64,000 nt of DNA from a virus: positions 85,249-149,248 of IMG/VR virus record IMGVR_UViG_3300042691_026427; one strand, given 5' to 3'. The notes under the pieces are model-generated. The model was not told the origin of the DNA. It saw only the letters and a list, made by a program, of their open reading frames with translations, and made no database searches. Shown here piece after piece: positions 22,715-58,062 of the stretch. The translations under genes and the position numbers were made by a program. The stretch's first letter is position 1. Every line of letters begins with the position of its first letter.

Positions 22715-23343
22715 ATAATTCCTCTAATTTAATGGAACATTTTGTTCCTTTACTAACATTTACATTATACGGAATAAATTCCAAATTGTAAATACTTCCG
22801 ATGACTTTAGGAGGAACTTTATTTTTAAATCCCTCTGTTATACTATACTTATGATCTAAGTGGTAACCAAATCTACTTCTTTTTTCATGATACCCTAGCT
22901 GTGTTAAATCATTTTTGCTAGTCCAATAATAAACTTTCCTGCGGTATTTTTTAAATTCAATATATTCAGGATCGTCTGGTTTCCAAAAAAATACCTTTAT
23001 CTATCTTAGTTTGAATCATTTTTTTAATAGACTCAGGTTTTACTTCTCTACCCGTTAATGCTATTGAACGTTTTCTATTAGATTCTTCTGTTTGACTTTT
23101 GCCAGCCATACCTTTTCTATTTAAATTAGCTAAACTATTTGTATTAGTTTGTCTTACACCAAACATAGGATTGTTTTCTCCTTGTTTAGCAAGGCTAGCT
23201 TTTTGTTTCCATGTTTCTGAACGATTATTTGCGGACCATCTTCTTGAACAAATAGGACCACAAAATCGTCTTGCTTGTTCTTTTTTGCCAGTCTTTAGTA
23301 ATATAAATTTATTGTTACAATGTTCGCAAATTTTTTCTAACAT
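22689..23343 (-). pseudogene. NUMOD3-like/HNH homing endonuclease split by a frameshift in a T7 run (22985-22991)
   Basis: The N-half has CEHC/FCGPIC and 'GENNPMFG'. Removing one T continues it as 'WKPDDPEY...YHLDHKYSITEGF...IGSIYNLEFIP...NVSKGTKCS' to TGA at 22689. Confidence 0.75.
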
Positions 23344-23403
23344 AATAGAAACCTCGTTGTGTTCTATTATTTAGTCTGTTACGAAAATATGCCATATAGT
23401 TGA

Positions 23404-23814
23404 TTATGTCAGGTCAGCAATCATAAACTCTTCATCGAAATATTGACGAACATCTGGAACCATTCCTTGACTTGTGTCAAATTGCCATTGCCCAATGACT
23501 TCTAGTATTTGATTGTAAATTGTCGAGTTGTCTGTGTATCTTACAAAATATGGATCATTGCCGTATAACAGATCAGCATCGTCCAAATAGTCAATAGGAT
23601 CGCCACCAAAGTATTCCGATAACCAACGAGCGTAGCATATGCCTACCATGTAGCTTTTTGCAGGATAGATCCATCCGATATCTTTTTCAGTAAAATATCT
23701 TACAGCATTATTTGTTATGTCATCAGACAGCACAATTTCTTTGGTATTGAGATCGTCATCAAACACTTGATTGATCCGATGATAAACTTCTTGTCGTATT
23801 TTCCATTCTTTCAT
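23404..23814 (-). CDS. Hypothetical protein, last gene of the radical SAM operon
   Basis: Overlaps the upstream rSAM gene; 'WIYPAKSY.V.ICYA.WL...DPYF..Y'. Confidence 0.75.
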   Translation of the reverse strand: MKEWKIRQEVYHRINQVFDDDLNTKEIVLSDDITNNAVRYFTEKDIGWIYPAKSYMVGICYARWLSEYFGGDPIDYLDDADLLYGNDPYFVRYTDNSTIYNQILEVIGQWQFDTSQGMVPDVRQYFDEEFMIADLT

Positions 23815-24724
23815 TTTTGTACCAGTTTATTAAATTGTAATAACCATTACAACTATTGTCAAGATCCTTAACATACCTATAGTGCTCAGTTAAGCACCCG
23901 CCAAAGTAATCACAAGTGCGGCAAACATCACTGACATTAGCTTGTTTTTCTTTCTTAGTCCATTTAATGTAGTCATCAAATGAATCAAGTCCTAGAAAGT
24001 ATTCTCTATCGTTAAGATCAAATTCAAGAACACCAAAGTTACCATTAGGAGTTATATAAACATGATCATCACTGAATGCATTTCGTTGCTTGTTTATCAC
24101 ATCTTCTATATAGTATTCATTAATAAATTCAAACTGTTTAGGTATTGAAGATGCTATCCATTTTTTAACAAATTTTTCGTAATCAGCATGGCTAACATTG
24201 TAGCAGTTGGCCTGATTAATACTATAAGGTTTTATCTCAACACTTTCGACACTTGAACATAAATTCATAGATTCAATTAACTCATCTACATTCATTTTCA
24301 ATACTTCAGGACTTGCCAATACTAACACTGCAATAGGCACAGGACTCATTAACATATTTTGATAAACTCGATCATGCTTTTCACGAGCTGACCAATCGTA
24401 ACTAACACTTAGATAAAAGTCATCTTCGTAAAATCCCTCATGTAACATTGAAAAATTAGTAATAACATTAATCTTTCCTTGATAATGTTTACGAATAACA
24501 TCACGCATTGCATAGAAGTAATCTTTTTTTAGAGCACCAATTTCACCGCCATATAAATCTATATGGCCTATCTCAGGTATTTGAGCCAATAGGCTATCTA
24601 ACTTATCTAAGTCTATTTTATTAGTATCGGCAAGTTGCTGTTCAGTAAGATAACAGAAGTCACATCTAAAATTACAAAAATAACTAGGATTGATCGAAAC
24701 GGTAATAGGCTTATTCATGTTCAT
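23759..24724 (-). CDS. Radical SAM enzyme with C-terminal Cys cluster (SPASM/twitch-like)
   Basis: CNFRCDFC, YGGEI, C-terminal CRTCDYFGGC...C. Confidence 0.9.
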   Translation of the reverse strand: MNMNKPITVSINPSYFCNFRCDFCYLTEQQLADTNKIDLDKLDSLLAQIPEIGHIDLYGGEIGALKKDYFYAMRDVIRKHYQGKINVITNFSMLHEGFYEDDFYLSVSYDWSAREKHDRVYQNMLMSPVPIAVLVLASPEVLKMNVDELIESMNLCSSVESVEIKPYSINQANCYNVSHADYEKFVKKWIASSIPKQFEFINEYYIEDVINKQRNAFSDDHVYITPNGNFGVLEFDLNDREYFLGLDSFDDYIKWTKKEKQANVSDVCRTCDYFGGCLTEHYRYVKDLDNSCNGYYNLINWYKNERMENTTRSLSSDQSSV

Positions 24725-25781
24725 TTACATAAGGTGTAGGATCTACTTTTCCAGTCAATCCGTTTGCTTCAATTATGAGAGGCGCTAGAGTTTTCATCTT
24801 AACACAATGAGCTTCTACCATATTGTGGTCTTTTAGATCTTTGATTGTTTTCTTGCAACCGTTGCATATTTGAAACATAGGGCAAGTCCAACAGCTCTGT
24901 TTTAAACTTTGTAATTCAGGTTGAAACTGTAAGGGAAATACTTTCTCCCCTTTCATTTCTTCTTCAAAGTTTATATTGTAGATCCGGTCATCACCAAATG
25001 CTCCGCAACTGTAATAATCGCCTGTAGGCTGCAAGGTTCTTATACCACTATCGCACGATCTGTTCTGAGGACAACTTGTGGCATATCCGTTCAAACGATT
25101 TACCATTTGTTTTGTGTTAAATTCCCATTCAGTTAACCCTTGTTGCCAAATTTTTACATATATTTCGTATATGTCAGCTAACATGTATGGTCTACCTTCT
25201 TGTCCCATAGTAATATTTTTAAATTTAACTGGAGGGCCACTGCTAAATGCATAATTGAGTTTACATTCAACATTCATTTCTTTTGCCAGCTCTACATTCT
25301 TAATTGCAAGATGTTGATTCTCTTCTGTAATTACTGTGATAAAATCAGGACGATATCCTATGCGCTCTAGCATCATATTGCTGACTGCCCAAAAGTCCTC
25401 TTCGCTGAATTCTGTTAGGTCTCCCTTAAGACGGCCGCCGCCATATTGGAAACTAGTTGTGACTCCTAGGCGAGGATGCTTAAACAGAGATTCCCACTTG
25501 GTAGGATTTTTATAAAATGGCCACAGATTACTTGTAAAACTGATAGTAGCTGTCGAGCCTATATTGTCTAAGTGTTCAATAAGTTTCCAATAATAATCTG
25601 GTGGCATCATTAAGGGGTCGCCGCCATTGACAATTATAGTTCGAGTTTCTGGAAATCTTTCTAAGAAACGAAAGATATATTCATGATCAAGCTCTGCAGA
25701 CTTATCTTCAGTAATGTTCGTGCTAGAACAAAATGTGCATTTAAAATTGCACCGTTCAGTTGGCTTGATTATTAGATCCAT
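24711..25781 (-). CDS. Radical SAM/SPASM enzyme
   Basis: CNFKCTFC, NGGDP, 'CPQNRSC...YSC...CWTCPMFQICNGC...C'. Confidence 0.92.
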   Translation of the reverse strand: MDLIIKPTERCNFKCTFCSSTNITEDKSAELDHEYIFRFLERFPETRTIIVNGGDPLMMPPDYYWKLIEHLDNIGSTATISFTSNLWPFYKNPTKWESLFKHPRLGVTTSFQYGGGRLKGDLTEFSEEDFWAVSNMMLERIGYRPDFITVITEENQHLAIKNVELAKEMNVECKLNYAFSSGPPVKFKNITMGQEGRPYMLADIYEIYVKIWQQGLTEWEFNTKQMVNRLNGYATSCPQNRSCDSGIRTLQPTGDYYSCGAFGDDRIYNINFEEEMKGEKVFPLQFQPELQSLKQSCWTCPMFQICNGCKKTIKDLKDHNMVEAHCVKMKTLAPLIIEANGLTGKVDPTPYVNEHE

Positions 25782-27426
25782 ATTCTACTATTTCTTCAAA
25801 GAGGTTATTATAGATTAACTGCTCGTTTGAATTTATAAATTCTTCGATTATTTCTAATCTATTTTTTCCATTTATTTTTGTTATATCCTTAGCAGCAGTT
25901 TCGTAATTTAGTGTATCTTTTACATCGTTGTATATCTCTTTAAAAGAACTAATGTTATTCATAGCGGTCCAACAATATTCAAGAAATGTCCGAACATCTG
26001 GTAAAACATCTTTTAAGTTTTTCCAAAGTTTCCTGACTAATGTATCTGATGCAAAAGACATAATAAACATTTGAATGTTATCTTCTAATGTATAAGAGTT
26101 ACAACTGGATATAGTTTTAAAATAATTTTTACGATTTTTATAAAGGCCGCTTGAAATAAAAGAAATTCCTTCTTCTACGGTTTGTGTGAAAACTTCTACT
26201 AATTTTATTTTATTTAAAGCACAATAAAGATCATCAGTAATTTCACTATCTGGTAGAGCCATATAATCATAAAAACAATATTGAATATTATTGTTTTCTA
26301 AACTATTGTATATCACTAACAGTTCATCATAAAAATCATCCAATGTTGAACCCGGCATTGCTCTTATAAATTCCATAAAAGGAGATGATGCTCCAAAATT
26401 TTTTTCGCAGTATTCAATTAATTGTATTTTATCTATCTTGTTTAAATCAACACGTTTAGAAATCTTCATTGCATTATCACTTAAACTCTGAATACCTATA
26501 TTAGGAACTATCGATTTTCTCCCGTTTGACGTATCTGTTCCTGTTATTTTGAAAATCTCATCAATTATCTTAATTTTTTTATCTAGATTTGTTGTTTTAA
26601 ACAATGAAGAGTTTATAAATGACATTCCCAAGTCATATGCATATTTTAAGAAAAACAAGTCTCGTTCTAAGAATAATCCAAAGTTTGCATCAACATTATA
26701 AATTTGCTTATAACCTAATTTGTGCAGCACATCTATTTCTCTAATTACAATATCTTCAGGTTTCTTTAACACCTTAGTTCCAATGCCGCCACCCCATTCA
26801 CAATATGTACAATGAAATGGGCACCCTCTTGTAGTTTCTATTAATACGTGTGGAAATATTCCCTCAATATCGGCGTAGTCTTTTATCTTTTTTAAGTAAT
26901 CGAAATTTTCTTCATATGCACAAACATTGGGAAATTGCCATTCTCGGCATTTAGTACTTCTTAATTCAAAACTAATATCTTCTATGTTAGGTATTCCGTT
27001 ATTTTCAAAATAGGAATCTATAAAATCTTGCATGAATAGTTCGCCTGGTTTTGTTACCTGACAGAAATAATCATACATAGTTTTCTTTTTGAAGATATCT
27101 ATATCTTTCTGCCCTATTTGCGGACCGCCCAACACATTAACTATATTAGGGTTAATATTCTTTGCCAATCTTGCAACTTCATCTATGATATCAGTATTCC
27201 AAATGTAAGAACTGTATAAAATTATGTCAGCAGTATTAACTTCTTCCCATATTTCTTTACAACTTTGATATCTGTTATATTTGAATGGTGGCTCTAACCA
27301 TTCAACTAAATCTTTGTATTTTCCAAAATTATCATAGTATGATTTCATCCATATCCAAGTCACTGGACTGAATAGCTCAGTGTCAATGCTAGGAGGATTT
27401 ACAAAAGCTATTTTAATTTTTTTCAT
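25756..27426 (-). CDS. Cobalamin-binding (class B-like) radical SAM enzyme
   Basis: N-terminal B12-binding-like domain ('SSYIWN...NVLGGPQ'), 'IETTRGCPFHCTYCEWG', 'DANFG', 'IQS'. Confidence 0.88.
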   Translation of the reverse strand: MKKIKIAFVNPPSIDTELFSPVTWIWMKSYYDNFGKYKDLVEWLEPPFKYNRYQSCKEIWEEVNTADIILYSSYIWNTDIIDEVARLAKNINPNIVNVLGGPQIGQKDIDIFKKKTMYDYFCQVTKPGELFMQDFIDSYFENNGIPNIEDISFELRSTKCREWQFPNVCAYEENFDYLKKIKDYADIEGIFPHVLIETTRGCPFHCTYCEWGGGIGTKVLKKPEDIVIREIDVLHKLGYKQIYNVDANFGLFLERDLFFLKYAYDLGMSFINSSLFKTTNLDKKIKIIDEIFKITGTDTSNGRKSIVPNIGIQSLSDNAMKISKRVDLNKIDKIQLIEYCEKNFGASSPFMEFIRAMPGSTLDDFYDELLVIYNSLENNNIQYCFYDYMALPDSEITDDLYCALNKIKLVEVFTQTVEEGISFISSGLYKNRKNYFKTISSCNSYTLEDNIQMFIMSFASDTLVRKLWKNLKDVLPDVRTFLEYCWTAMNNISSFKEIYNDVKDTLNYETAAKDITKINGKNRLEIIEEFINSNEQLIYNNLFEEIVEYGSNNQAN

Positions 27427-28475
27427 TAGTTATATTTTAACACATTTTCTTCGTCGAGTCTATTAAAAAATTCTCTAAACAGACATTCGTCATTGCGTTC
27501 CAATTTTGCCCAATCAGCTTGCACAAAACATCTAAATGAGCAACGATCAAACCATTTACATCCCAAGCATTTGTTGCGTTCAAGATGCGCTTCTATAATA
27601 TTGCTGTTAGAAGAAAAATTAACCGGAGTTAGAAAATCTTCAGGCTCTGTCTTTACATAACGACAAGTTACTTCTCTACCTGACGGAAGTATAGTAGTCT
27701 TGTTCATCGAATAACAAGTCATCTTATTACGACTGTTTTCCAATAGATCTTTTACGGGATAAATGTTGGGATAATTCTTGGCAATATACATCATACAATC
27801 CAACATTTCCTGTTCACTAGGCATCATCTTATCTGCAGACAATTCTGGAACATAATAATCAAAATACAATGTATATTTTTTATACAGTGTATCTATAAAA
27901 AATTTGTCTTGGTTGCGTAATATCTTTCTAATAGCCGGAGCAGTGAGTACAAATCCAATAACAGTGATCCAATCTCCAAATATTTTTAAGTTATTTTCAA
28001 ATTGTAATGATCTGTTTAAATTAAAACCTCTGCCTGCAAAGTCATAAGATGTCGAGATATATGCATTATTTCCCACAGCTCGCATACGAGTTATTAAGTC
28101 AATTACACGTTGACTCTTGTTGAATATCAAATTAGTTACCCAATTAAATCTAACAATCTTGTTGTTGAGGTTAACCCAATCATTTATTTTTGAATAGAAT
28201 TCCCAATAAGATTCAAATGTGTTATCTGGCACTAGATCATTAAAAATCTCTCCACCCATGACGTTTACAATATGGGAATCCTTATCAGATGCCGTCATGA
28301 AATCTATAACTTGCTGAGCCTTATCAACAATACTGTTAAGTTCCATTCCTTCTGTAGAATCGTGATCTTGTCCGCAAAATGCACAACTTAGATTGCAAAA
28401 TTCAAATAGATGCAACTCGATTTCAGATGAATCGGGTACCTTATCTCTTAATACATGTTTTAGAAAATCACTCAT
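27426..28475 (-). CDS. Radical SAM enzyme with C-terminal Cys cluster
   Basis: CNLSCAFC, MGGEI, 'CLGCKWFDRCSFRC...C'. Confidence 0.9.
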   Translation of the reverse strand: MSDFLKHVLRDKVPDSSEIELHLFEFCNLSCAFCGQDHDSTEGMELNSIVDKAQQVIDFMTASDKDSHIVNVMGGEIFNDLVPDNTFESYWEFYSKINDWVNLNNKIVRFNWVTNLIFNKSQRVIDLITRMRAVGNNAYISTSYDFAGRGFNLNRSLQFENNLKIFGDWITVIGFVLTAPAIRKILRNQDKFFIDTLYKKYTLYFDYYVPELSADKMMPSEQEMLDCMMYIAKNYPNIYPVKDLLENSRNKMTCYSMNKTTILPSGREVTCRYVKTEPEDFLTPVNFSSNSNIIEAHLERNKCLGCKWFDRCSFRCFVQADWAKLERNDECLFREFFNRLDEENVLKYN

Positions 28476-28881
28476 ATATATGTTCCTGTGTCACGTTGTC
28501 TATATTAAAATCTTTTGATAATTCAAAACAATATTTAGGCGACGTCTTAACATGGACCACTGCCAGTTTAAATTCATTCGACCATTTCTCTTCTTTATTC
28601 ATAGACGACGTTAATATTTTAAACAACTCCTCCATAGAAGTTATTCCTAGTTCTTCTGTTAGATATAGAATATTATTATCTATTAATCTAAATTCCATTG
28701 TTAACGGATAGTAGTATCGACAATTGTACTCGTATATTACAATAACAGATACAGGAAACAAGGCTTTCTTAAAATATGAATACTCTGTTACTGCTTTGGC
28801 ATTATCTATAGCAGTAATAGTGCATGATATTTCTATGTCTGTATTTTTTCTAATAAACACATCATCTGTAGATTGTAACAT
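28468..28881 (-). CDS. Hypothetical protein in the rSAM operon
   Basis: Coupled start/stop overlaps on both sides. Confidence 0.65.
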   Translation of the reverse strand: MLQSTDDVFIRKNTDIEISCTITAIDNAKAVTEYSYFKKALFPVSVIVIYEYNCRYYYPLTMEFRLIDNNILYLTEELGITSMEELFKILTSSMNKEEKWSNEFKLAVVHVKTSPKYCFELSKDFNIDNVTQEHIYE

Positions 28882-29813
28882 TATCTCACCTCAAACATTT
28901 TATATATAGCGTTTGGATTATCACTGTGTTTATATGCCCAATAGACTTTGCTCACAAACGTGCAGATTGCATTTTTGCCCAACGAATCTGATAGATAGGT
29001 AATCCTACAATCATTGCCTAGATCTCTATATAGTAGTTCTTCATATTGTTCTGCATATATAAGAGAAACAGGTTCTAAATAACTATCAACGCCAGCAGCA
29101 TCTCTGTGAGCTATTGCATGATTATTAAATATTTTGATCATTTCTTTATAGTCAGGGAACAGTTTTCTTAATGCATGTTCGACATTAACATTGTTATGGT
29201 CAAAATCATAACCTAATATAAAATACCAGTCATTGTGATCTAGCATTTTTTTCGGAATATCAGAAAGTCGACTGGTTGAAAATTCTAAATCAGTTCCTGT
29301 AATATAATGAGCATTAAAAATGTCTCTCTTCATATCAGTTGCATACATTTGAAGTTCTTGAGATAACAATGACCAACAACAGAATTTAACGTATTCTAAT
29401 AGTTTAGTTTTTCCCAAACCGCTTAATAGAAAGTTTGGTAATAAAAACTCGTAACCTAAATTGTCAATTGACAATTCTTCTAGACAAGAAATCTTATTAT
29501 AATCTGTTTGGAAGATATCAACATATTTTTCTAAATTACTTTTTTCGTTATTCAAAGATAAATTTAAGAAGTATAACTCAAACAAATTGGTTAAGTTTTC
29601 TTTGCTGTTATCTTTTAATATATTTGAAAAAAAATCTCTAAAAATAGTTACAAACTGTTCTTCACTGCAATTAATCTTTATACTCTTTTCTTGGAATAAT
29701 AATGTTTGCCAAAAAGCATCACTATTCTTTCCCAAAAGGTTGTCAGCAGATATTGTTGAATCATAATCAGATTTACAACGTGTTAACCAAACATTGTTGA
29801 ATAATCTTATCAT
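28881..29813 (-). CDS. Hypothetical protein; paralog of 35663..36715
   Basis: Shared 'M..LF...(W/Y)L', '(Y/F)E(F/Y)LLP.(F/Y)L' and 'E.LL.RD' motifs. Confidence 0.7.
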   Translation of the reverse strand: MIRLFNNVWLTRCKSDYDSTISADNLLGKNSDAFWQTLLFQEKSIKINCSEEQFVTIFRDFFSNILKDNSKENLTNLFELYFLNLSLNNEKSNLEKYVDIFQTDYNKISCLEELSIDNLGYEFLLPNFLLSGLGKTKLLEYVKFCCWSLLSQELQMYATDMKRDIFNAHYITGTDLEFSTSRLSDIPKKMLDHNDWYFILGYDFDHNNVNVEHALRKLFPDYKEMIKIFNNHAIAHRDAAGVDSYLEPVSLIYAEQYEELLYRDLGNDCRITYLSDSLGKNAICTFVSKVYWAYKHSDNPNAIYKMFEVR

Positions 29814-30553
29814 AATTTACAAACTTCAGACAATAAAATATCTTTTGCCCATCTAATAGGAATATGTTTAGATACATCTCTATTAGATGCAATAACTAGT
29901 GAGTTATCATGAGCCAATAAGCATTCTTCTACAGTACGATCTGACATAGTTAATGTGCCAATATCTTTTTCAAAACTTAATGCTGCTACTAAATTTGCGT
30001 AATTGAATAGTTTATATAAGTTTTCTCCATATATATTTTCTACATACTGTTTTATTTCTAGGAAGTTTATGGGCACAGCTAGAGTATGTGTATCTCTTAG
30101 CATATCGTATCCCATTAATAACTGATCACTAGTAAATCTTATCAATGATCCCATAAAGAAATATGTAGTGTTCTGTTCAATTGACTTCACGGGCTTATCT
30201 ATTTCAAGGAGTGCAATATCGAACTGAGACGCACTGGTCATCCACTTTAAATATCCTTGGTCAATAATTTCGTATACTGCACTATCAGACCTAGATTTAT
30301 TACGACTGTCTAGAGTACTGTGACGAATTTTACAATAAGATACCCAGTCTGATCTAGAATAGCGTAATCCAGTAGCTAGTTGACCAAAATAAACAGACAA
30401 CATTCCACTTATCGACAAGTGTCCTGGCTCATAATTTCTATCACCTAATGTAAATCTATAAAATCCTGGAAAGAAATCCCCAGAAGATAAAATTACCTTT
30501 GCAAATTCTTCGTCTGTAATATCTCTAGCTAGATATATTAAATCAATTGCCAT
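29810..30553 (-). CDS. Hypothetical protein in the rSAM operon
   Basis: Overlap-coupled ORF, 247 aa. Confidence 0.7.
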   Translation of the reverse strand: MAIDLIYLARDITDEEFAKVILSSGDFFPGFYRFTLGDRNYEPGHLSISGMLSVYFGQLATGLRYSRSDWVSYCKIRHSTLDSRNKSRSDSAVYEIIDQGYLKWMTSASQFDIALLEIDKPVKSIEQNTTYFFMGSLIRFTSDQLLMGYDMLRDTHTLAVPINFLEIKQYVENIYGENLYKLFNYANLVAALSFEKDIGTLTMSDRTVEECLLAHDNSLVIASNRDVSKHIPIRWAKDILLSEVCKL

Positions 30554-31646
30554 ACGGAAGTGTACCCATTGCGTTTACTACTTCAAGGGCATTCTTTGCA
30601 ACTAGACAATCTTTTACATTATGAACATCCATTAGATGCAAAATACCACGATCAACACACGATCCTAAGAAAGGGCAGTCACCACATTCAGTCTTATCTC
30701 CGACATTAGAATACTGTGCTAATTGAACTGTCTGTTCAAAATTTTCAAAGTCTGTAGCGTGATGATTAGGTGTTGGAATTTTTAAGTCATCAATAAAACT
30801 AGCATATCGTTCATACAGTAATGGTGAGTAATAAAATTCTCCATTCTTCCAATTGTATTGTTTTTCAACTAGCGAATCAGATAGTCGTCCAAACGAAAAT
30901 CTTAGATAGTTATTTTTTTCATTAGTTACTACAGAATCATTAAACATTTTTTTAATTCGTTCTGCTGAATTAAAAAATTCTTCTGTAGTTAATTTCTCGT
31001 CTTTTCTTCCAAAAGAAAAATTAAAATCAATTGTGGTTTCGAATAAATGATTTACTCTCTTGTGTAGGTAATCATAATTTTTTAAGAGATCAGATATTTT
31101 AGTATTATCATAGTCGTAAACGTTCATAATGCCAAATGATCTTAGCTTTGTAGGCCAGTTCATCAATCGAATTACTTCTTCTTGATTTTTCTTAATTGTT
31201 TCTAAGTATTTGTCATTTTCTATCTGTTCAGGTTCGATAATGACATTGATTTCTAATTCGAGATTTGAATAATGATCTCTCAACACATCGGCAATTAAAC
31301 TGGCCTTGCTGATGTCTAAGTAAGTTGTTTGAAAAGATAATCTTTTAAATTTATTGAATATCTCTATAATTCTCTTGTCTGTTAGTAATGCATATGCATT
31401 TTTTGCTGAAAGGAAATCAGTAGGGCCAACAAATGCAATGAACGGACTGTAATAATTGCCAGTGTTAAATGAATTTAAAACATTTTTTAAATCTTCATAG
31501 TGTGCATCTGTAAGAGGTTCTGCACCTTCTTTGTTTACATGACATCCTTTGCAATTCCACTGACAGCCATTTAATAATTCAAAATTTAAATTAAAATAAA
31601 ATGTATAGGAATCATTTAAATTACCAGAAGCAAGATAGGCATCCAT
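30543..31646 (-). CDS. Divergent radical SAM protein (PTD in place of the GGE motif) with C-terminal Cys cluster
   Basis: CQWNCKGC, 'VGPTDFL', 'CGDCPFLGSC...C'. Confidence 0.8.
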   Translation of the reverse strand: MDAYLASGNLNDSYTFYFNLNFELLNGCQWNCKGCHVNKEGAEPLTDAHYEDLKNVLNSFNTGNYYSPFIAFVGPTDFLSAKNAYALLTDKRIIEIFNKFKRLSFQTTYLDISKASLIADVLRDHYSNLELEINVIIEPEQIENDKYLETIKKNQEEVIRLMNWPTKLRSFGIMNVYDYDNTKISDLLKNYDYLHKRVNHLFETTIDFNFSFGRKDEKLTTEEFFNSAERIKKMFNDSVVTNEKNNYLRFSFGRLSDSLVEKQYNWKNGEFYYSPLLYERYASFIDDLKIPTPNHHATDFENFEQTVQLAQYSNVGDKTECGDCPFLGSCVDRGILHLMDVHNVKDCLVAKNALEVVNAMGTLPYGN

Positions 31647-32366
31647 TTATTCTACTCCAAATACTTCTTCCGGATTTAGCGGAATTTCTTTGTTTATCAT
31701 TTGATACAATAAGGGAACAAACATATTTAAATCATTATTATAGTAGTCAAATAACGATTTTCCCTTAAACATGTGTGCTTCAAATTGTTGAGTAAAATAC
31801 GTTAAACTTAAAGGTCTGTCTACTGAAAAGTATATTTCTAAAAAGCCTGGCAAACTAAAAAGATTAACAACATTTAATCCAACATAATGGGGATCATCAA
31901 TATTTTCAAAGTTCTCTTTAACATTAAGTTCTGCGTTTAAGTCTTCAAAACTTTTAATTAGAAACAACATAGTAGAATCAATAAAATGAATCCAACGACC
32001 TACTAAACTTTCATTCTTAGTAATAAATTCTTCACACTCTTCTTTGGATAGCAAGCTCTTTCCATAATTTGCATCAGGATAAATGGCTTGTAAGATAATT
32101 TGAGCCGCAGCAACATTCAGATATGCAATGTTCGAAACACTGTTCCCCCCAAAATAAGCTTCAATTAATTCAAACTTTTGTTCTTTGGTTACTGACTCAT
32201 TTAGAACCAAGTCAGAAGGAATATCTAAATTTGAGAGGTATACTAACAGTACTTTTCCTTGAATTTTTGACTGTTGGTAATCTACCATAAAGAATGTATT
32301 TTTATCTTTAAAGTACTCTTTGATTTGATCAATTGGTATTGGTGCAATCGTCTGAACGTAATTCAT
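31647..32366 (-). CDS. Hypothetical protein in the rSAM operon
   Basis: 'TIAPIPID..K.YF.DK...F..DY..SK..GK..LVYLSNLDIP'; coupled to its neighbours. Confidence 0.72.
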   Translation of the reverse strand: MNYVQTIAPIPIDQIKEYFKDKNTFFMVDYQQSKIQGKVLLVYLSNLDIPSDLVLNESVTKEQKFELIEAYFGGNSVSNIAYLNVAAAQIILQAIYPDANYGKSLLSKEECEEFITKNESLVGRWIHFIDSTMLFLIKSFEDLNAELNVKENFENIDDPHYVGLNVVNLFSLPGFLEIYFSVDRPLSLTYFTQQFEAHMFKGKSLFDYYNNDLNMFVPLLYQMINKEIPLNPEEVFGVE

Positions 32367-33480
32367 TATAATTTTTCCTAAGTTCTGTTAAATTTTGTTT
32401 TGCTTTTGTTTCGTATAGTTGTATAAAGGTAGATTTGTTATTTCTAATCCTCGATATAACTTTTTTCGACAACGGGCATTCATCGCTGTCATCAAACAGA
32501 CTTGCATCACAATTTCCGCCGCAAATATCATAATGTTCACATGTGAAGCACATTTCATGTTGTGTCATTTCGGCTAATTTATTTATAATGACATCTACGG
32601 CCTTGGTTTGAAATGTATCCCAGTCGTTTACCATTTCATCAACTGTAGATACAGGTTCAACATAAGTCTTGTCGGGGCAAAATCCAACAGTACCATTTGG
32701 ATTTAACGTAAATGTTCTTTTATCGCAACAATTACATTTACAATCAAACATTTGACCGCTCAATAGAGTTTTGGTGAATAGATCTACTTGTGGTAAGCAC
32801 CAAGTAGTTTCATTATGTTGGTAATATTCAACCAAAGTATCTAACCAATTTGCCCATTTGATATTATTTGGTTTTAAACTTCTTGTCTGTTCATCAAACG
32901 TAGTGAGCAATTCAAAGTCTATAGAATCAACTCCATCAAATAGTTTTACAATTTCGAGAGGATCATAATTTAAAAGATATTTCTGTGCTGTGATAGATAT
33001 ATGCACTTTTATACCTGCATCTATTAATTTTTTTAAATTACCAAAGAATAAATCTTCTTGCTCATGTTTTTTATTAATTGCAATAGATCCAAATCTTATA
33101 TCAGCGTCCCAACTTACTCCAATAGTTGATCTATATTCATCCTTAATAAATTGAATAAATGTATCGTCTACCTTATAGAGTAAATTGGTTTGGGGTACAA
33201 TGTCCATCGGCATTGAGCCAAAAGTATTTCTTATTATTTCATTTACTTTAACTAAATGTTCGTAAGGTGATAAAAATGTCTCGCCACCATGTATGTAAAA
33301 AGTAGCCTTGGCAGGATCAACATTTTTTTTAATTGAGGTTAGAAATTTTTCAATGTAACCTAAATCAGTAAGCATATAGGGATCTTTGTCTCCTAATGTA
33401 AAACAGTGAGTACAATTTAAATTGCAACCCTGTATCACTCTTAGATAGATTACATTGAATTCGTTTGAAAAAACGTTCAT
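32329..33480 (-). CDS. Radical SAM/SPASM enzyme
   Basis: CNLNCTHC, HGGET, 'CKCNCC...FCP...CFTCEHYDICGGNC...CP'. Confidence 0.92.
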   Translation of the reverse strand: MNVFSNEFNVIYLRVIQGCNLNCTHCFTLGDKDPYMLTDLGYIEKFLTSIKKNVDPAKATFYIHGGETFLSPYEHLVKVNEIIRNTFGSMPMDIVPQTNLLYKVDDTFIQFIKDEYRSTIGVSWDADIRFGSIAINKKHEQEDLFFGNLKKLIDAGIKVHISITAQKYLLNYDPLEIVKLFDGVDSIDFELLTTFDEQTRSLKPNNIKWANWLDTLVEYYQHNETTWCLPQVDLFTKTLLSGQMFDCKCNCCDKRTFTLNPNGTVGFCPDKTYVEPVSTVDEMVNDWDTFQTKAVDVIINKLAEMTQHEMCFTCEHYDICGGNCDASLFDDSDECPLSKKVISRIRNNKSTFIQLYETKAKQNLTELRKNYNELRSDDCTNTN

Positions 33481-34349
33481 AACTTCGGCTTGCTTGCCAC
33501 AATAAAATAATAGTTAAGTTTATTGTTTTTATGATTTTCTATAAAATATTCTTCAATGCCACTTTTAAGTTCCCACTGAGATCTCAATTCCCAATAAGGT
33601 ACCAAATCTTTAGTTCTATCTTCAGTAAAAATTAAGTTTAAGCCTGAGTTAACTATTGCAGTTTCGTATTCATTAATACCATGCATGGTAGATGCGTAAT
33701 GATCGTTAATAGGTTCAATAAATTCATTAAAATTATTAGTGTCTAGATTGTCGTTAAAACACCAAGTGGCAATTACAAAGCGGCCACCGGGTTCTAAAAC
33801 TCTGTATACTTCCTTAAACAACATGTCAAGTTCTAATGCATATTGAGTAACTTCGCAGCAATATGCATGACTAAAAGTAGCATCAGCATAGGGAATACTT
33901 AGAAAATTAGCCTGTCTAACTTCTGCTCTATCTTGTAAATTTCTTTTTTCTATTTCGTCTTTACAAAAATTAGTTTGATACTCAGTTAAATTTACACCAT
34001 CGACTTTGACATTTGAAAACTTTTCTATAATCCTAAACATGGTGCCTCCGCGTCCGCAGCCCAAGTCAATGACTCGTTGTGGTGTACCAAATAGTTTATC
34101 AAACTGTAAAAATGTTATTAAGTGACTAGTCAGTTTGTTTTCTTGTCGTTGGACTTCTGCTGTAATTTCTTCTGTAGTTGCAGTAGTAGCATCTATTTCA
34201 GTAGGGCCTAAGCCAAAGTGATGATGAACAAAACCATCAACTGCTTGTAGCAAGTTTCTATCATTCTTTTTATTGTTATAATAATCAAATACCGCAGTAC
34301 TAAGCGTGTTTTGAGTTTGGGTATGATCGTTGTTAAATTTTGTATACAT
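33477..34349 (-). CDS. SAM-dependent methyltransferase resembling geranyl diphosphate 2-C-methyltransferase
   Basis: 'VDGFVHHHFGLG', 'DLGCGRGGTM', 'INDHY...H...EY', 'PYWELR.....SGIE..FIE' match the GPPMT family signature as recalled. Confidence 0.8.
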   Translation of the reverse strand: MYTKFNNDHTQTQNTLSTAVFDYYNNKKNDRNLLQAVDGFVHHHFGLGPTEIDATTATTEEITAEVQRQENKLTSHLITFLQFDKLFGTPQRVIDLGCGRGGTMFRIIEKFSNVKVDGVNLTEYQTNFCKDEIEKRNLQDRAEVRQANFLSIPYADATFSHAYCCEVTQYALELDMLFKEVYRVLEPGGRFVIATWCFNDNLDTNNFNEFIEPINDHYASTMHGINEYETAIVNSGLNLIFTEDRTKDLVPYWELRSQWELKSGIEEYFIENHKNNKLNYYFIVASKPKL

Positions 34350-34970
34350 TTAAATTTCCAGTAGTGCTTTTGCGTCTGTTGCAAAAGAATATCGTGTGCC
34401 AATAAAAGGTTTTGCCCTATGCCAAACATCCGACGCCATTACTATCATAGTATACGGGATAGGAGCATATTTGTAAACCGGATTTAAATTTTCAGGCAAC
34501 CAAACATGTGATAACGGGTTTTCTTTTAAATCTTCATAGAATTCAAAACATCCGTTATCCATTCCAATAGTATCATCTTGTTTGATATATAATACTGTGG
34601 TCACGTCACCGATTTCATCTGCTCTTAAAAAAGGTTGCCAGTGACGATGTATACGTTGGCCTTGCCAACTGTTAGGAGTGTTGAGCCATGAATCCTTGTC
34701 TAGATAATAGTTCTGGCCTTTGCCAGCAAATCTAGGATGCACCGTATCTAGAAAATCAAAAATAATGCTGTCTATTACAGCTTCAAACATCTTCACTTCT
34801 GGTGTATTTGTTTCCCAGACGTTTAATTTGTTTTTTTCATCATCGGGTCCCAAAAAATACATTTGCGTATTGTCAATTAACGAATTACAAAATGGTTCTA
34901 TAAGTTCTTTGTAATCATTTAAATCATATATCATTGCATTAAAGTTAGGAACTTTAAATTTGTTTGTCAA
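34350..34970 (-). CDS. 2OG-Fe(II) oxygenase-like protein
   Basis: 'IHRH...TVLYI...GCFEF...WHRAKPF.G.RYSFA' double-stranded beta-helix pattern. Confidence 0.75.
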   Translation of the reverse strand: MTNKFKVPNFNAMIYDLNDYKELIEPFCNSLIDNTQMYFLGPDDEKNKLNVWETNTPEVKMFEAVIDSIIFDFLDTVHPRFAGKGQNYYLDKDSWLNTPNSWQGQRIHRHWQPFLRADEIGDVTTVLYIKQDDTIGMDNGCFEFYEDLKENPLSHVWLPENLNPVYKYAPIPYTMIVMASDVWHRAKPFIGTRYSFATDAKALLEI

Positions 34971-35656
34971 TTTTGAACCTCATCAAATACAGTAGATTTC
35001 ATCAAGGGGTCGGCAGGATAGTAATATAACTTTAACTTCAATGGTTGATAGGTAGTTGCGTTATATGTCAAACCAAACACCTTCATAAAAGTAGTGTCTT
35101 TGCAAAATTCTTTAACAGATTCGATGAACGGAATTGGAAGATTATAAAAATTTGCAACTGTTTCAACATTTTGATGCATAAAATATAAATCTTTCTTTTC
35201 GGGATTAACGCTGATACCTTGTCCCCAGTGACTTAATATTTGACTTCCTGCAACTATCATCGGCTGTGTATGTTTCCACAGATCTAAATCATAAAATTTT
35301 GGAACCTGTTGTTTGCTATCTAAAAAATAATTGATACAATAATCGTCATGTGGTCTAACGATATTAATGTTAAATTTGTTGCAATCGATCCTTCCTCCGG
35401 AATATACAGCCATGAACTTGTGTTCGGTATAGTTTATACCATCTGCAGGTTGGAAACTAAATTGTTGCAATTTTTCTAAGTTCACACCTTCATTAAAGAT
35501 AGAACCCATAACATCAATATAGGCGAACAAATAATCGTCTGGAACTTTTTTAGAATTAAACAAGTTCTCTTCTACTTTGTTACCTACGATTGTTATCTCT
35601 TCGGCATGTTGATTTATTTCTTTGCTTATTTCTTTAAAAAAGTCAATACTATTCAT
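34967..35656 (-). CDS. Hypothetical protein, possibly ABBA/PT-barrel prenyltransferase-like
   Basis: Beta-hairpin-like motifs 'GISVNPEKKDLYF' and 'FGLTYN...LKLKLYYY'. The ORF is solid; the function is speculative. Confidence 0.5.
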   Translation of the reverse strand: MNSIDFFKEISKEINQHAEEITIVGNKVEENLFNSKKVPDDYLFAYIDVMGSIFNEGVNLEKLQQFSFQPADGINYTEHKFMAVYSGGRIDCNKFNINIVRPHDDYCINYFLDSKQQVPKFYDLDLWKHTQPMIVAGSQILSHWGQGISVNPEKKDLYFMHQNVETVANFYNLPIPFIESVKEFCKDTTFMKVFGLTYNATTYQPLKLKLYYYPADPLMKSTVFDEVQN

Positions 35657-35662
35657 AGTACA

Positions 35663-36715
35663 TTAGTAAAGTCTAAATGGAGCCAAATCTGCTGTTAAAT
35701 TTTGTCTCTTTTTTCTATAGCAATAAGTTGAAAATATTTGATTAGATTTTTCTCTAAATAATTCAAATGTATAAAGACACCCAAAGTTTCTATTGATGTC
35801 TCGATGTAGTAATCCTTCCCAATCTTCAGCCATAAGCATTTGGTTTACTTCAAACATATCTTCATTACCTGTATGATCGGGCACCCATATTCTTTCTAAG
35901 GAATGCCATTGATTAACAAGATTGTTGTAATCATAGTTAGAAGTAATGTAGGAAGGTTCTGCTGAGAAATTCTCATCAACCATCCAATTTAACGTTGAGC
36001 TGTTTTTCAATTGGTCTTCGACGTTACCTATTTCAAAGTTGCTGTCAGGGTCTATTACACCCATGTCTAAGAATCCAAACATCGTTTCTAATCTTAGTTG
36101 CTCCAACTCATCTCGCCAGTTGTCAATACTAATGATTCTAACACGGTCTAGTATTTCTTCTTTGCATAGACTTTCTTCACCATGATATAGATAGTCGGGC
36201 AAAAGATATTCGAACGAAACATCCTGTTTATTAATGACATTTCTTAAAAAATTAGAAACTGGTTGAGCATCGTATATAACTTTGAATTCTTCGAATGATT
36301 TCATCTTAAAAGTATCTCTTACCATTTGATGTCGCGTATCGGGTGCATTAACTTGTATATAGGATCTTACTCGCACACTTTCAACCATTGATTTATACAG
36401 GAGGTAAACATCTTGCTCTGAAGCATATTGAAATATACTTTTTGCATATTGTATTAACAATCTCTCAGTAACATCGGTTTTTAAATAGGCGATAAGTTTG
36501 TGATCAGCTTCGTACATATATTGCCAAAATTGTTCAACATCGTTTTCAAAATTGTTTGCCAATAACTCGTCAAATGTGCCAACTGACGGCAGTATACAAA
36601 TATCTGTTGGCATTGGAAAGAGATTGTATAAATCGGTTGCCATTAACATTTTGTAACCAATACTGTCGAATTTATAATCAAATTCTAAATAAGCTCTTTT
36701 AAATAAGTGAAACAT
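35663..36715 (-). CDS. Hypothetical protein (350 aa); paralog of 28881..29813
   Basis: ATG at 36715 overlaps the upstream TAA (TAATG); starts MFHLFKRAYL. Confidence 0.75.
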   Translation of the reverse strand: MFHLFKRAYLEFDYKFDSIGYKMLMATDLYNLFPMPTDICILPSVGTFDELLANNFENDVEQFWQYMYEADHKLIAYLKTDVTERLLIQYAKSIFQYASEQDVYLLYKSMVESVRVRSYIQVNAPDTRHQMVRDTFKMKSFEEFKVIYDAQPVSNFLRNVINKQDVSFEYLLPDYLYHGEESLCKEEILDRVRIISIDNWRDELEQLRLETMFGFLDMGVIDPDSNFEIGNVEDQLKNSSTLNWMVDENFSAEPSYITSNYDYNNLVNQWHSLERIWVPDHTGNEDMFEVNQMLMAEDWEGLLHRDINRNFGCLYTFELFREKSNQIFSTYCYRKKRQNLTADLAPFRLY

Positions 36716-37377
36716 TATCTTCTTCCTCTTGATCCGTGGCAATTATTATGGCACGATGAATGACACACACGTAAATCAACTGTTCCTATTGAACCTCTTA
36801 GTGCAGTAACTGCGGCAGCTAAATTAGTATAAAAATTGTTGATATTGGCTGCAGAAATAGTAGCATTTGTACTTGGTTCAGATGATACGAACCCTACAGA
36901 TTGCAAATAATTATTATTAAGATGGGCTTGGCCATAAGTTAATAAAACTGTTCCGGAGAAAAAGGGGATGTTTGCATTGTCTGACGGTACGCCAGTTTGA
37001 GTATATTGACCGTTAAAATATTGAGTATAATAAAGGCCCCAAACAGCTGGACGTAATCTAGTAGTAGCATTGGCAAATGCTTTGCACATATTAACAATTA
37101 AACTGGCGTTTATTGTCAAACCGGATGCTCCTGAACCAGGTAGATTAGAAGTCGTTGGATATGCGTATGTATTCGTACCTAACTCACTTAACCTTGCAGA
37201 GAGGTATGCTCCTGTCCAGCCGATAACAGTACCGTTGTCCCACATTCTAACGTTAATTACTGGAACGTTGTAGTAGTGTATGCTTCCACTAGGGTCCATT
37301 CGCGAGGTATTCATCACTGTTGCAATAAAGTCATTAACTACGCTGGCTTTGGTTATAACTTGTCCTGTAGATGCCAT
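36715..37377 (-). CDS. Candidate substrate of the rSAM cluster: virion-like protein with C-terminal CHSSCHNNCHGSRGRR
   Basis: S/T/N/G/A-rich body with three 'I.(A/K)..+.N' repeats, then (CHxx)3-RGRR; sits between rSAM genes. Confidence 0.7.
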   Translation of the reverse strand: MASTGQVITKASVVNDFIATVMNTSRMDPSGSIHYYNVPVINVRMWDNGTVIGWTGAYLSARLSELGTNTYAYPTTSNLPGSGASGLTINASLIVNMCKAFANATTRLRPAVWGLYYTQYFNGQYTQTGVPSDNANIPFFSGTVLLTYGQAHLNNNYLQSVGFVSSEPSTNATISAANINNFYTNLAAAVTALRGSIGTVDLRVCHSSCHNNCHGSRGRR

Positions 37378-37390
37378 TTATCCGTTCCTT

Positions 37391-38392
37391 TTATTTAATA
37401 TCCAAAAAACAACCCATGTTAAAATCTCTTGCTATAGGAAAATACCCTTTTCCCATGCAGTGGGTTAAATTTTTACAATTGACACATTTGTCTAGTATCA
37501 CGTTATTTATATCATCTATACTGCTGTAAGTTTTAATAAAACCTTCGTAATTTGGAGTCAGCACTCTAAATCGAGGATTATCTATAAAAACGTATTCATC
37601 AAAAGGAATAATAGGAGTTAAAAAAATATCACCCGGTGACCCTAAAAAAGTAAATGCAGGTTTTCGCAACAGTGTTCTGTCGTTGTATTGTTTTGTTGCA
37701 TTCTCTGTACCTAAATAATGATCAGTTATGTCATGTATGGTTCTAATGCTTTCTTGCAACATGTTTGTTTTTTTCTCCAAACTTATATCTGGATTATACA
37801 AAAATGTAAAATTTAGTTCAATTATCTCATCATCGGATAAAAAATCTAACATTTGGTTTAGTTTAACTTTTTCCTTATCGGACAATGTAAATCCGGTATT
37901 GATTGCCAAGTTGATTATAACATCATCGCCGTATGTTTCTTTAATCTTTGCAATTCTAGATTTTATTGTTATTTGATAGTTTATGTCAAACAGTTTTGCT
38001 ATCAATAGATTGACCTGCAATTCAATTTTGGCCAATGGATTATTGTTTTTTACAATTTTAAAAAATTCTGGATCAAACCCTGTTTCTAACGTAGATGCCA
38101 CACCCACATACTCAAACAATGAAACTGTTTCTGCAAATTCTGCATTTTCAAACAGTTTGTAATTGTCCTTGTTATCAAATATATCAGTTGGCAATAGATA
38201 ACAAGTTTCCAATTCATAACCGTTTTTCAACAAGTCTTTGGCCAACGATAACGAAGATGTAAAATCGTTGTAATTATTTTTAGTTCTGTTGTAAAAACAT
38301 CCCCGGCAATCCATGGAACAGTCATTCAATACCAGCATTCTAAATTCTGCCAGTTTGTATGGGTCACCATATCTTTCGTAGGAATTATACAT
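37391..38392 (-). CDS. Divergent radical SAM protein (PTD in place of GGE) with C-terminal Cys cluster
   Basis: CSMDCRGC, 'LLPTDIF', 'CVNCKNLTHC...C'. Confidence 0.8.
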   Translation of the reverse strand: MYNSYERYGDPYKLAEFRMLVLNDCSMDCRGCFYNRTKNNYNDFTSSLSLAKDLLKNGYELETCYLLPTDIFDNKDNYKLFENAEFAETVSLFEYVGVASTLETGFDPEFFKIVKNNNPLAKIELQVNLLIAKLFDINYQITIKSRIAKIKETYGDDVIINLAINTGFTLSDKEKVKLNQMLDFLSDDEIIELNFTFLYNPDISLEKKTNMLQESIRTIHDITDHYLGTENATKQYNDRTLLRKPAFTFLGSPGDIFLTPIIPFDEYVFIDNPRFRVLTPNYEGFIKTYSSIDDINNVILDKCVNCKNLTHCMGKGYFPIARDFNMGCFLDIK

Positions 38393-39440
38393 GATGTACA
38401 GCCTTGATAGGAATTGTAATTCTCTTTGGCTTTGCCAATGCTTTCATCAAACTTTTCGGTGCTCCGCATATATCGTCCTGCCATTCTAGTTGATGACAAT
38501 CGCTGTTGCAGTATTCAAATACTTCGCAAGTATAACATCTAGGATCCCTAGCTCTTTCGCAAGAAATGTTTTCTAATCTCTGGGGACTTGTTAACAAAGA
38601 GGCAATGTCATCATCAATGTGGCCAAATTGATGTTCTGGGGCGCTATTGGGGCAACCAGATATAGTTCCATCAGCATTTAGGGTAAACAGCTTTTCTTCA
38701 CAGTCCCTGCAAAATGTAGCGCCATTGGTAAGTCCAATTTCAAATTTAGCATAGATGCTTTCCATAAATTCGTTACTGAACCATGACCTTGCGTCATGCT
38801 CTACTATCTGATGGTGCATCTTTAAAAACCACTGATCTTGTTCTAAGTTTGTGGGAAATATATGCAAATTTTCTCTTGCGCTGCCGTTCATAGTGAGACG
38901 CTCAAGTGCTAGATCAGTAACGCCTAAATCTCTTATCCATTCCAGCAGATCAATAGGTTCCATGGCAACGGTGCCTCGGGTAACACTGACAAACAGTTTG
39001 ACCTCAACTCCTAGATCAATTAGGGTCTGCAGATTCTTTCGCCATAAGTCGTATTGTTTAGGACTGGCAAATCTTATGTCTGGATCCCAGCTAGTTCCTA
39101 TGCGGCCTCCCAATGGCCCCATGATAAAATCAATCTTGTCCTGTGTTAACTTATAAGTTAAGTTGGTAGTGACACCCCAGCTGCGACTAGCCCATAATTC
39201 CTGGCATTGATCATACACATACTGCATCGATGATATATCTGCTAAAAAGGGTTCGCCGCCGTGAAACTCTAAATGTACATGGGGCGCACTAGCTGTTTCA
39301 ACATGTAGACGTTTAAGCCAATCGGCAACCTTTACATGATCCCAATATATCTTTGCGCCTTTGCTGCCGCTAGTAAAACAGTGCAGGCAATTGAGATTAC
39401 AGGTTTCTGTAGTCTTGAGGTAAATCATTAATTCTTTCAT
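38385..39440 (-). CDS. Radical SAM/SPASM enzyme
   Basis: CNLNCLHC, FHGGEP, 'CRDC...GCPN...CYTCEVFEYCNSDC...C'. Confidence 0.93.
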   Translation of the reverse strand: MKELMIYLKTTETCNLNCLHCFTSGSKGAKIYWDHVKVADWLKRLHVETASAPHVHLEFHGGEPFLADISSMQYVYDQCQELWASRSWGVTTNLTYKLTQDKIDFIMGPLGGRIGTSWDPDIRFASPKQYDLWRKNLQTLIDLGVEVKLFVSVTRGTVAMEPIDLLEWIRDLGVTDLALERLTMNGSARENLHIFPTNLEQDQWFLKMHHQIVEHDARSWFSNEFMESIYAKFEIGLTNGATFCRDCEEKLFTLNADGTISGCPNSAPEHQFGHIDDDIASLLTSPQRLENISCERARDPRCYTCEVFEYCNSDCHQLEWQDDICGAPKSLMKALAKPKRITIPIKAVHHV

Positions 39441-39448
39441 CAGAATAT

Positions 39449-39919
39449 TTAATAGCCTACGCTAAGGGCCCAAGTATTTTGTACACTGCTGACTCGATGT
39501 AGATAGCCCCGTGGTATTATCACATGCTGACCCGGATGCAATACAACCTTTTTATTTCGAATGTAAACTGTCTTTCGACCCTTTATTACATGCAGTAATA
39601 CATTTACATCGTCTTTGTGCCAATCAAAACTGTAGCCAAATTTTTGATTGACAAATAGGTGTATGTTTTTAAAATTTATCTTGTTAAAACAAGAACTGAC
39701 AGCGTGATCTGTTTCAAGGCCTTCAACTTTTATCACAGGATAGGATTTATGCTGTTCTATCCATTGAGAAAAAGTAAAAAAATCTTTAACTATGCAATCA
39801 CTGTGTTTATAGTCAGGGTGACCTATAACTTTTATTAAACCCTGTTCATACTTGGAATAATCTAACAGCTGATCGGCCAGTAATTTACTTACTGTCTTGG
39901 TCAGGCAGTGGTCCGCCAT
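39449..39919 (-). CDS. JmjC/cupin-type oxygenase
   Basis: 'FDWHKDDVNVLLHVIKGRK...L.PGQ...IPRG.LHRV' gives an HxD...H triad. Confidence 0.8.
   Translation of the reverse strand: MADHCLTKTVSKLLADQLLDYSKYEQGLIKVIGHPDYKHSDCIVKDFFTFSQWIEQHKSYPVIKVEGLETDHAVSSCFNKINFKNIHLFVNQKFGYSFDWHKDDVNVLLHVIKGRKTVYIRNKKVVLHPGQHVIIPRGYLHRVSSVQNTWALSVGY

Positions 39920-57984: not shown

Positions 57985-58062
<78 letters not shown>

Follow-up and report, generated by a model that had tools for sequence, protein, structure and literature searches.

A phage methyltransferase of the prenyl-diphosphate C-methyltransferase superfamily, encoded near a compact PT-barrel protein in a radical SAM gene cluster

Prenyl-diphosphate C-methyltransferases are known from a small number of bacterial pathways that lead to terpenoids or cytokinins. 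The superfamily includes the geranyl diphosphate (GPP) C-methyltransferases (GPPMTs) of Streptomyces coelicolor (SCO7701, here ScGPPMT; PDB 3vc1/3vc2) and S. lasaliensis (PDB 4f84). It also includes the isopentenyl diphosphate (IPP) methyltransferases (IPPMTs), namely the Streptomyces monomycini enzyme (SmIPPMT), MT1 and MT2 of Rhodococcus fascians, and Lon23 of longestin biosynthesis. In GPPMT, E173 and an aromatic residue at position 222 (Phe or Tyr) have roles in carbocation stabilisation (PMC9800250, PMC7862628). In IPPMTs, the positions parallel to G202 and F222 of GPPMT are occupied by two conserved residues, Trp (W194 in SmIPPMT) and Tyr (Y214), and the G202M substitution, which introduces a bulkier residue, re-tunes GPPMT to dimethylallyl diphosphate (DMAPP) (PMC9800250). 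MT2 of R. fascians converts IPP directly to the allylic 4-methyl-DMAPP for cytokinins, and a transferase consumes this product (PMC9401056). Here, we describe a methyltransferase of this superfamily that is encoded by a virus. The gene lies in a 64,000-nucleotide stretch of DNA (hereafter the window; positions 85,249 to 149,248 of IMG/VR record IMGVR_UViG_3300042691_026427), in a cluster of radical S-adenosylmethionine (SAM) genes that also encodes a compact protein with a predicted prenyltransferase barrel (PT-barrel). The reading we prefer, and to which we give an even chance, is that the enzyme methylates a C5-type prenyl diphosphate and that the PT-barrel protein transfers the product onto a substrate of the radical SAM cluster, most likely a protein with a Cys-His tail. 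The features are listed in Table 1.

A preliminary description of the window had recognised the gene as a GPPMT homologue from short motifs, and all of the motifs quoted there are present in the protein. They are VDGFVHHHFGLG (residues 37-48), DLGCGRGGTM (95-104) and INDHY (214-218), followed in the C-terminal part by PYWELR (251-256), SGIE (263-266) and FIE (269-271). The top NCBIfam model was GPPMT_Stmyces (NF041943; 171.1 bits, E = 4.4e-50, profile positions 4-270 of 272), and the second-best family reached only E = 5e-14. Among PDB sequences, residues 20-286 matched the two GPPMTs at 32% identity (3vc1, E = 1.5e-36; 4f84, E = 2.3e-34), and other methyltransferases followed at E = 2e-13 or worse. 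Pfam returned generic class I methyltransferase domains only. The similarity to the superfamily is full-length and includes the N-terminal cap (DG.xHHH.G) and the C-terminal segment (PYWELR...GIE..F). Since the GPPMT match is full-length and the next families lie at E ~1e-13, a chance resemblance is excluded, and the protein is, judged by its sequence, a true homologue of the prenyl-diphosphate C-methyltransferases. The profile and sequence search against GPPMT that the preliminary description had suggested accordingly returned GPPMTs as best matches, not other methyltransferase types.

The protein is not, by profile score and pocket residues, a GPPMT in the strict sense or a GPPMT orthologue, because its 171 bits fall below the NF041943 equivalog cutoff of 400 bits and because Trp and Tyr occupy the sites of G202 and F222. 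The GPPMT identity given in the preliminary description therefore stands at the level of a superfamily homologue with Mg2+/diphosphate and cation sites, and not at the level of an orthologue. Several relatives of the protein carry the Joint Genome Institute (JGI) label GPPMT.

The functional residues of ScGPPMT (PMC9800250, PMC7862628) were mapped onto the phage protein through a HMMER alignment to 3vc1, in which the chain numbering equals the native numbering plus 20. Residue conservation was checked in 98 full-length relatives, and invariance was counted in 38 members of the clade of the phage protein. The Mg2+ ligand N37 corresponds to phage N32, the diphosphate contacts H49 and R260 to H43 and R256, and the carbocation stabiliser E173 to E166. 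The groove residues Y177, I218 and F273 correspond to Y170, I214 and F269. The cation-pi residue F222 is replaced by Y218, and G202, at the floor of the GPP groove, by W196. All of these phage residues are invariant (38/38). The groove residue Y284 (phage Y280) is kept in 37 of the 38 members and is Phe in P0017. A further diphosphate contact, R34, is not conserved (phage N29), and an invariant R31 adjoins the Mg2+ ligand. The phage enzyme has the IPPMT pair in the form of W196 and Y218, with the equivalence taken from the positions stated in PMC9800250. Its pocket looks C5-sized from these residues, and a C5 substrate (IPP or DMAPP) appears more likely than GPP, since Trp196 and Tyr218 are invariant and this pair is reported for IPPMTs.

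Independent evidence on the substrate class came from the family at large. When 1.84 billion representatives were searched exhaustively and without a profile, only 33 proteins reached E <= 1e-30. In P0150 (487 aa) and P0160 (477 aa), a type-1 IPP isomerase and a GPPMT-like methyltransferase domain are naturally fused. On NF002995 (cutoff 127), the isomerase part scored 159 bits (P0150) and 137 bits (P0160), and both fusions have Trp and Tyr at the two pocket signature positions. Fusions of this Rosetta-stone type tie the superfamily, and its Trp/Tyr form in particular, to C5 diphosphates at the level of sequence.

A maximum-likelihood tree was computed without named IPPMT sequences, and P0174, P0183 and P0190 were excluded as too divergent. 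The window protein, 37 metagenomic relatives and two proteins from the exhaustive search (P0123 and P0131) formed one clade, with a support of 99 in the Shimodaira-Hasegawa-like approximate likelihood ratio test (SH-aLRT) and a stem of 0.65. This clade was separate from the clade that holds the actinobacterial Trp-type proteins, the Gly196 (GPPMT-type) proteins and the isomerase fusions. P0130, P0134, P0144 and P0149 (544-626 aa) formed another supported clade, in which a GPPMT-like methyltransferase is fused to an N-terminal domain of ~280-340 aa. This domain had no Pfam or NCBIfam match, and the ESM Atlas search with P0130 returned only hypothetical proteins. Against ~50,700 GenBank phage records, tblastn with the window methyltransferase gave only two weak partial matches (28-31% identity). 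GTDB genomes scanned with a sequence pattern for members of the clade gave no match within the reach of that pattern.

The phage enzyme shares with the IPPMTs the superfamily, the fold and the Trp/Tyr pair. It differs from them in being phage-encoded, in lying beside a PT-barrel protein in a radical SAM cluster and in belonging to a clade apart from the actinobacterial Trp-type relatives. With the GPPMTs, it has in common the N-terminal HHH and the C-terminal PYWELR and GIE motifs, as well as equivalents of the Mg2+ ligand and of H49, R260, E173 and Y177. It departs from them in its sub-cutoff score, in the G202-to-Trp and F222-to-Tyr exchanges, in the unaligned R34, in the lack of a 2-methylisoborneol (2-MIB) synthase partner, and in its occurrence in a phage rather than in an actinobacterium or a cyanobacterium.

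The candidate for the transferase is the 229-aa protein encoded two places upstream of the methyltransferase gene. Neither Pfam nor PHROG nor the PDB sequences offered a match to it. An AlphaFold2 model built from a 20-sequence alignment was of high confidence (predicted local distance difference test score (pLDDT) 92.4, predicted template modelling score (pTM) 0.88) and had ten strands in five hairpins that alternate with helices. In a Foldseek search against the PDB, all but one of the matches listed were ABBA prenyltransferases, led by LimF (E = 2.7e-5), PagF, KgpF and PirF and followed by AmbP1, PatF, DciF and NphB/Orf2. With VIA-align, all 50 entries listed were PT-barrel prenyltransferases (Z 9.2-6.3, 190-210 of 229 residues aligned). 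The closest folds are the ABBA prenyltransferases of cyanobactins and other ribosomally synthesised peptides with post-translational modifications (RiPPs), namely PagF, LimF, KgpF, PirF, PatF and DciF (Z 8.0-8.7 over ~190 of 229 residues), which have a ten-stranded PT-barrel of five hairpin-helix repeats. LimF geranylates histidine; the title of its PDB entry names it a peptide prenyltransferase. The 229-aa protein is, as modelled, a minimal and divergent PT-barrel member and not an orthologue of any known enzyme. Conserved lysines (K80, K120, K192, K207, K209) and tyrosines (Y106, Y122, Y158, Y198, Y211, Y213) lie on the model strands in an i/i+2 register. In the model, this alternating register is as would be expected of a diphosphate-binding barrel interior. 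By its fold, the protein could plausibly serve as the transferase that uses a methylated prenyl diphosphate as donor. Like the genes of the RiPP prenyltransferases, its gene is part of a cluster for the modification of a product of the ribosome, with a 220-aa protein and not a short cyclic peptide as the presumed substrate.

The two genes are linked beyond the window. Relatives of the methyltransferase were found on 14 metagenome contigs (48-80% identity), several of them labelled marine, and on one viral contig (44% identity). The order PT-like gene, 2-oxoglutarate (2OG) oxygenase gene, methyltransferase gene and radical SAM/SPASM gene is kept in L004, L007 and L008. L009 ends beyond the 2OG gene, and the last three genes keep this order there; L005 and L006 begin at the methyltransferase gene and offer no upstream flank. 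The radical SAM gene next to the methyltransferase gene is syntenic throughout L004-L009. The 2OG gene is present in five related loci and missing from L016 and L017. In these two rearranged loci, a PT-like gene (25% identical) lies directly upstream of the methyltransferase gene and overlaps its start. A PT-like gene accompanies the methyltransferase gene in six of the six radical SAM clusters with enough flank (the window, L004, L007, L008, L016 and L017), and the two genes travel together.

The window also encodes a candidate acceptor. The 220-aa protein ends in a tail, CHSSCH(N/S)(N/S)CH(G/S)SRGRR, that is invariant in four loci (the window, L004, L007 and L016), and its body of 160-200 aa is only 33-39% identical across the same four loci. 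By this comparison, the 17-residue tail is under very strong constraint. We infer that this protein is the most likely acceptor of the prenyl group. A complex prediction of the PT-like protein with the 40-residue acceptor tail scored 0.01, which is no evidence either way.

In the pathway we prefer, the methyltransferase would take IPP or DMAPP from the host and methylate the double bond with SAM. The carbocation would be stabilised by Glu166 and Tyr218, and the diphosphate would be held by Mg2+ (bound by Asn32), His43 and Arg256. The enzyme would release a methylated allylic C6 diphosphate. The PT-barrel protein would use this C6 diphosphate as donor and alkylate a substrate of the radical-SAM maturation cluster, with a mass increase of 82 Da. 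The likeliest substrate would be the 220-aa protein's C-terminal tail, which is invariant and rich in Cys and His. The preliminary description had proposed a non-canonical methylated prenyl donor for transfer onto protein. That proposal gains from the PT-barrel neighbour, the gene linkage and the conserved active site, and a C5 diphosphate is a likelier substrate than GPP. A narrower version, in which the acceptor is a virion-associated protein whose Cys-His tail is processed by the radical SAM enzymes and decorated with the methylated C6 prenyl group by the phage IPP/DMAPP methyltransferase and the 229-aa PT-barrel protein, is possible but doubtful.

Several observations weigh against this pathway. 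The clade of the phage methyltransferase stands apart from all characterised enzymes, to which its members are 32-38% identical, so the substrate could have shifted. The residue at the R34 position is Asn29, and the role of the neighbouring invariant Arg31 is assumed; Arg is also missing at this position in actinobacterial relatives. At the level of sequence, the 229-aa protein does not resemble known prenyltransferases; it falls ~60-70 residues short of the length of its structural matches and aligns with them at modest TM-scores (0.39-0.45). The record encodes no source of prenyl diphosphates, so the pathway would rely wholly on host pools. Seven loci (L003 and L010-L015) have the methyltransferase gene but no recognisable PT-like gene, and in none of them did a hidden Markov model (HMM) built from the PT-like family pick up another member beside the methyltransferase gene. 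Conversely, PT-like genes occur without the methyltransferase gene in L024 and in Agrobacterium phage Atu_ph07. Because each gene is also found without the other, the data fit a methyltransferase that serves as an optional tailoring step and changes the donor used by a PT-like enzyme that is more widespread among phages.

The gene in Atu_ph07, a cultured 490 kb jumbo phage, is gp150 (YP_009611815.1, L025:17475-18179), which is annotated as hypothetical. It matched the 229-aa PT-barrel model in BFVD (TM 0.74, E = 8e-14) and the profile of the PT-like family in hhalign (98.6%, E = 5.5e-16), and it lies ~5 kb from a cluster of three radical SAM genes (gp172-gp164). Searches of phages by tblastn with the 229-aa protein and with the L024 homologue gave no match, and the Atu_ph07 homologue was reached only by structural search and hhalign.

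Other surroundings of the methyltransferase gene were also seen. Some of the loci without a PT-like gene lie among tail-fibre genes (L011). In L010-L012, a 236-250-aa protein is encoded upstream of the methyltransferase (L011:1901-2638 and homologues, here A6). The model of A6 had an overall pLDDT of 59.9, and its confident C-terminal half had a hairpin-helix repeat pattern like that of the PT-like protein. The hhalign comparison of A6 with the PT-like family was negative. Foldseek gave no match at E <= 0.001, and a few prenyltransferases were interspersed with weak matches to unrelated proteins. A third context has the methyltransferase (46-49% identity) after a protein of 445-586 aa whose N-terminal part contains a flavin adenine dinucleotide/nicotinamide adenine dinucleotide (phosphate) (FAD/NAD(P))-binding Rossmann motif (NAD_binding_8; L013:802-2268, L014:4-1764 and L015:1333-2670). 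This context may represent another pathway in which the same methylated donor is used.

The preliminary description had noted the absence of a terpene cyclase, and the wider search bore this out. The whole 149 kb record, which is ~44% complete by CheckV, had no Pfam match to Terpene_syn_C_2, polyprenyl_synt, UbiA or IPPT and no match to IPP isomerase models. The Trp_DMAT (DMATS) model likewise gave no match in the record; it also gave none in the control genomes and was therefore uninformative. No open reading frame of at least 150 aa in the gene island around the methyltransferase had the DDxxD and NSE/DTE motif pair. Neither a 2-methylisoborneol nor a 2-methylenebornane synthase partner was found in the incomplete 149 kb record or in the motif scan of the island. 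The missing cyclase is less odd than the preliminary description had implied, since the IPPMTs of R. fascians feed a transferase and not a cyclase (PMC9401056).

These results bear on three other explanations. The enzyme could be an orthodox GPPMT making 2-methyl-GPP, as in 2-MIB biosynthesis, and the best named NCBIfam and PDB matches and the JGI labels on its relatives agree with this. We nevertheless judge it very improbable, and the strict GPPMT/2-MIB reading was rejected: the score is far from the equivalog cutoff, Trp replaces Gly202 in every clade member counted, no 2-MIB synthase was found, and the protein falls outside the Gly196 clade of the tree. A bulkier residue at position 202 shortens the pocket to C5 size (PMC9800250). 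It is also conceivable, although unlikely in our view, that the enzyme methylates host prenyl diphosphates and that the product is not passed to the PT-like protein, so that the gene is an auxiliary metabolic gene by which the isoprenoid pool of the host is diverted or altered, or yields a free methylated isoprenoid. The seven loci without a PT-like gene, their occasional position among tail-fibre genes (L011) or beside an FAD/NAD-binding oxidoreductase-like gene (L013-L015), and the lack of an encoded cyclase or synthase would suit such a role. It accounts poorly, however, for the adjacency of the methyltransferase and PT-like genes, which persists even in rearranged clusters, and for their place in one tightly packed, co-directional operon.

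Somewhat more weight, though still on the doubtful side, goes to the explanation that the GPPMT fold has been recruited to a non-prenyl substrate and that the PT-like neighbour is unrelated or is not a prenyltransferase. The enzyme might then C-methylate an alkene or another nucleophile that the radical SAM and 2OG enzymes have made on the precursor, or its substrate might be some other small diphosphate. The well-supported separate clade with its low identity to characterised enzymes, the unconserved R34 position and the contexts without a PT-like gene all favour this explanation, as does the setting of the gene in a cluster resembling those for protein maturation, where it is translationally coupled to the radical SAM/SPASM gene. 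An invariant Mg2+ ligand, two invariant diphosphate-binding residues and an invariant cation-stabilising Glu/Tyr pair are, however, hard to explain for a peptide substrate, and the adjacent PT-barrel is an independent prenyl signal. The C5 prenyl-diphosphate pathway, with transfer by the PT-barrel protein, remains the reading we prefer.

The methyltransferase gene belongs to an island of low guanine-plus-cytosine (GC) content (Table 1). By composition, most of the island has a GC content of 30-35%, compared with 42-48% in the flanks, and this difference suggests that the cluster of radical SAM, PT-like and methyltransferase genes was horizontally acquired as a whole. Over positions 22000-40000 of the window, the GC content lies 8-15 points under that of the flanks. 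By Pfam, NCBIfam and PHROG, the island encodes two radical SAM/SPASM enzymes, one B12-type radical SAM enzyme, several more radical-SAM-like proteins, a cupin, the 2OG oxygenase and several proteins of unknown function. Upstream, the methyltransferase gene directly adjoins the 2OG oxygenase gene; downstream, it shares 4 nt with the radical SAM gene. The product of the latter scored 28.7 bits on the NCBIfam SPASM model TIGR04085 (cutoff 27). The 206-aa 2OG oxygenase had no Pfam match and nothing meaningful among PDB sequences. An ATP-dependent DNA ligase (phrog_114, E = 3e-91) is encoded at 20348-21640 on one flank of the island and a cell-wall hydrolase (Hydrolase_2, E = 7e-26) at 41124-41717 on the opposite flank. 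Two tRNA genes, for tRNA-Met (CAT) and tRNA-Leu (TAA), lie side by side on the plus strand at 57985-58154.

Table 1. Positions of the gene island and of the genes discussed in the text (window coordinates)
Feature	Coordinates	Strand	Remarks
Low-GC gene island	23404..39919	-	Co-directional, tightly packed; encloses the PT-like, 2OG and methyltransferase trio
Radical SAM/SPASM enzyme	32329..33480	-	Directly downstream of the methyltransferase gene, overlaps its stop; Pfam Radical_SAM
GPPMT/IPPMT-superfamily SAM-dependent C-methyltransferase, 290 aa	33477..34349	-	ATG start
Putative 2OG-Fe(II) oxygenase, 206 aa	34350..34970	-	phrog_81, E = 7e-9; between the PT-like and methyltransferase genes
Compact PT-barrel (ABBA prenyltransferase-like) protein, 229 aa	34967..35656	-	Two places upstream of the methyltransferase gene; candidate transferase
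Candidate acceptor, 220 aa	36715..37377	-	C-terminal tail CHSSCH..CH.SRGRR

The preliminary description had assigned the gene to a phage, and the window is T4-like marine myovirus DNA. This origin follows from the genes for collagen-like tail fibres, a virion structural protein (phrog_5838, E = 2e-257) and the DNA ligase, from the source in a 149 kb IMG/VR virus record, and from the 42% identity of the structural protein to its counterparts in Synechococcus T4-like myoviruses. A megablast search of GenBank phages with the island gave no match. The Ralstonia jumbo phages RSF1 and RSL2 have a cupin and radical SAM cluster that is partly syntenic with the island, and the methyltransferase gene is missing from both (tblastn, GenBank phages). 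The island may be compared with the HXS antiphage system (HxsA-D; PMC13128918), where a protein that has short repeats containing His is matured by paired radical SAM/SPASM enzymes. As described, HXS differs in being bacterial and defensive, in having no methyltransferase or PT-like gene, and in its repeat, which is H-x-S and not C-H-x-x.

The searchable literature yielded no pathway, in phages or among RiPPs, in which a prenyl-diphosphate methyltransferase is paired with a prenyltransferase. What is new is the combination of a phage-borne clade, a minimal PT-barrel partner, a radical-SAM protein-maturation context and no cyclase. The PT-barrel homologue in the cultured jumbo phage Atu_ph07 makes the system experimentally tractable. 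If the pairing is real, the 229-aa protein, which is smaller than any structural match listed, would join the PT-barrel family, and the two enzymes would form a new pair with which peptides could be given C6 'homoprenyl' groups. The pairing would also provide a chemical handle on the widespread and uncharacterised phage radical-SAM cluster. It would mean that phages draw on the isoprenoid pool of the host to lipidate protein, and the narrower version with a virion-associated acceptor, if true, would be the first pathway of protein prenylation in a virus and would yield the first ribosomal product with a homoprenyl group.

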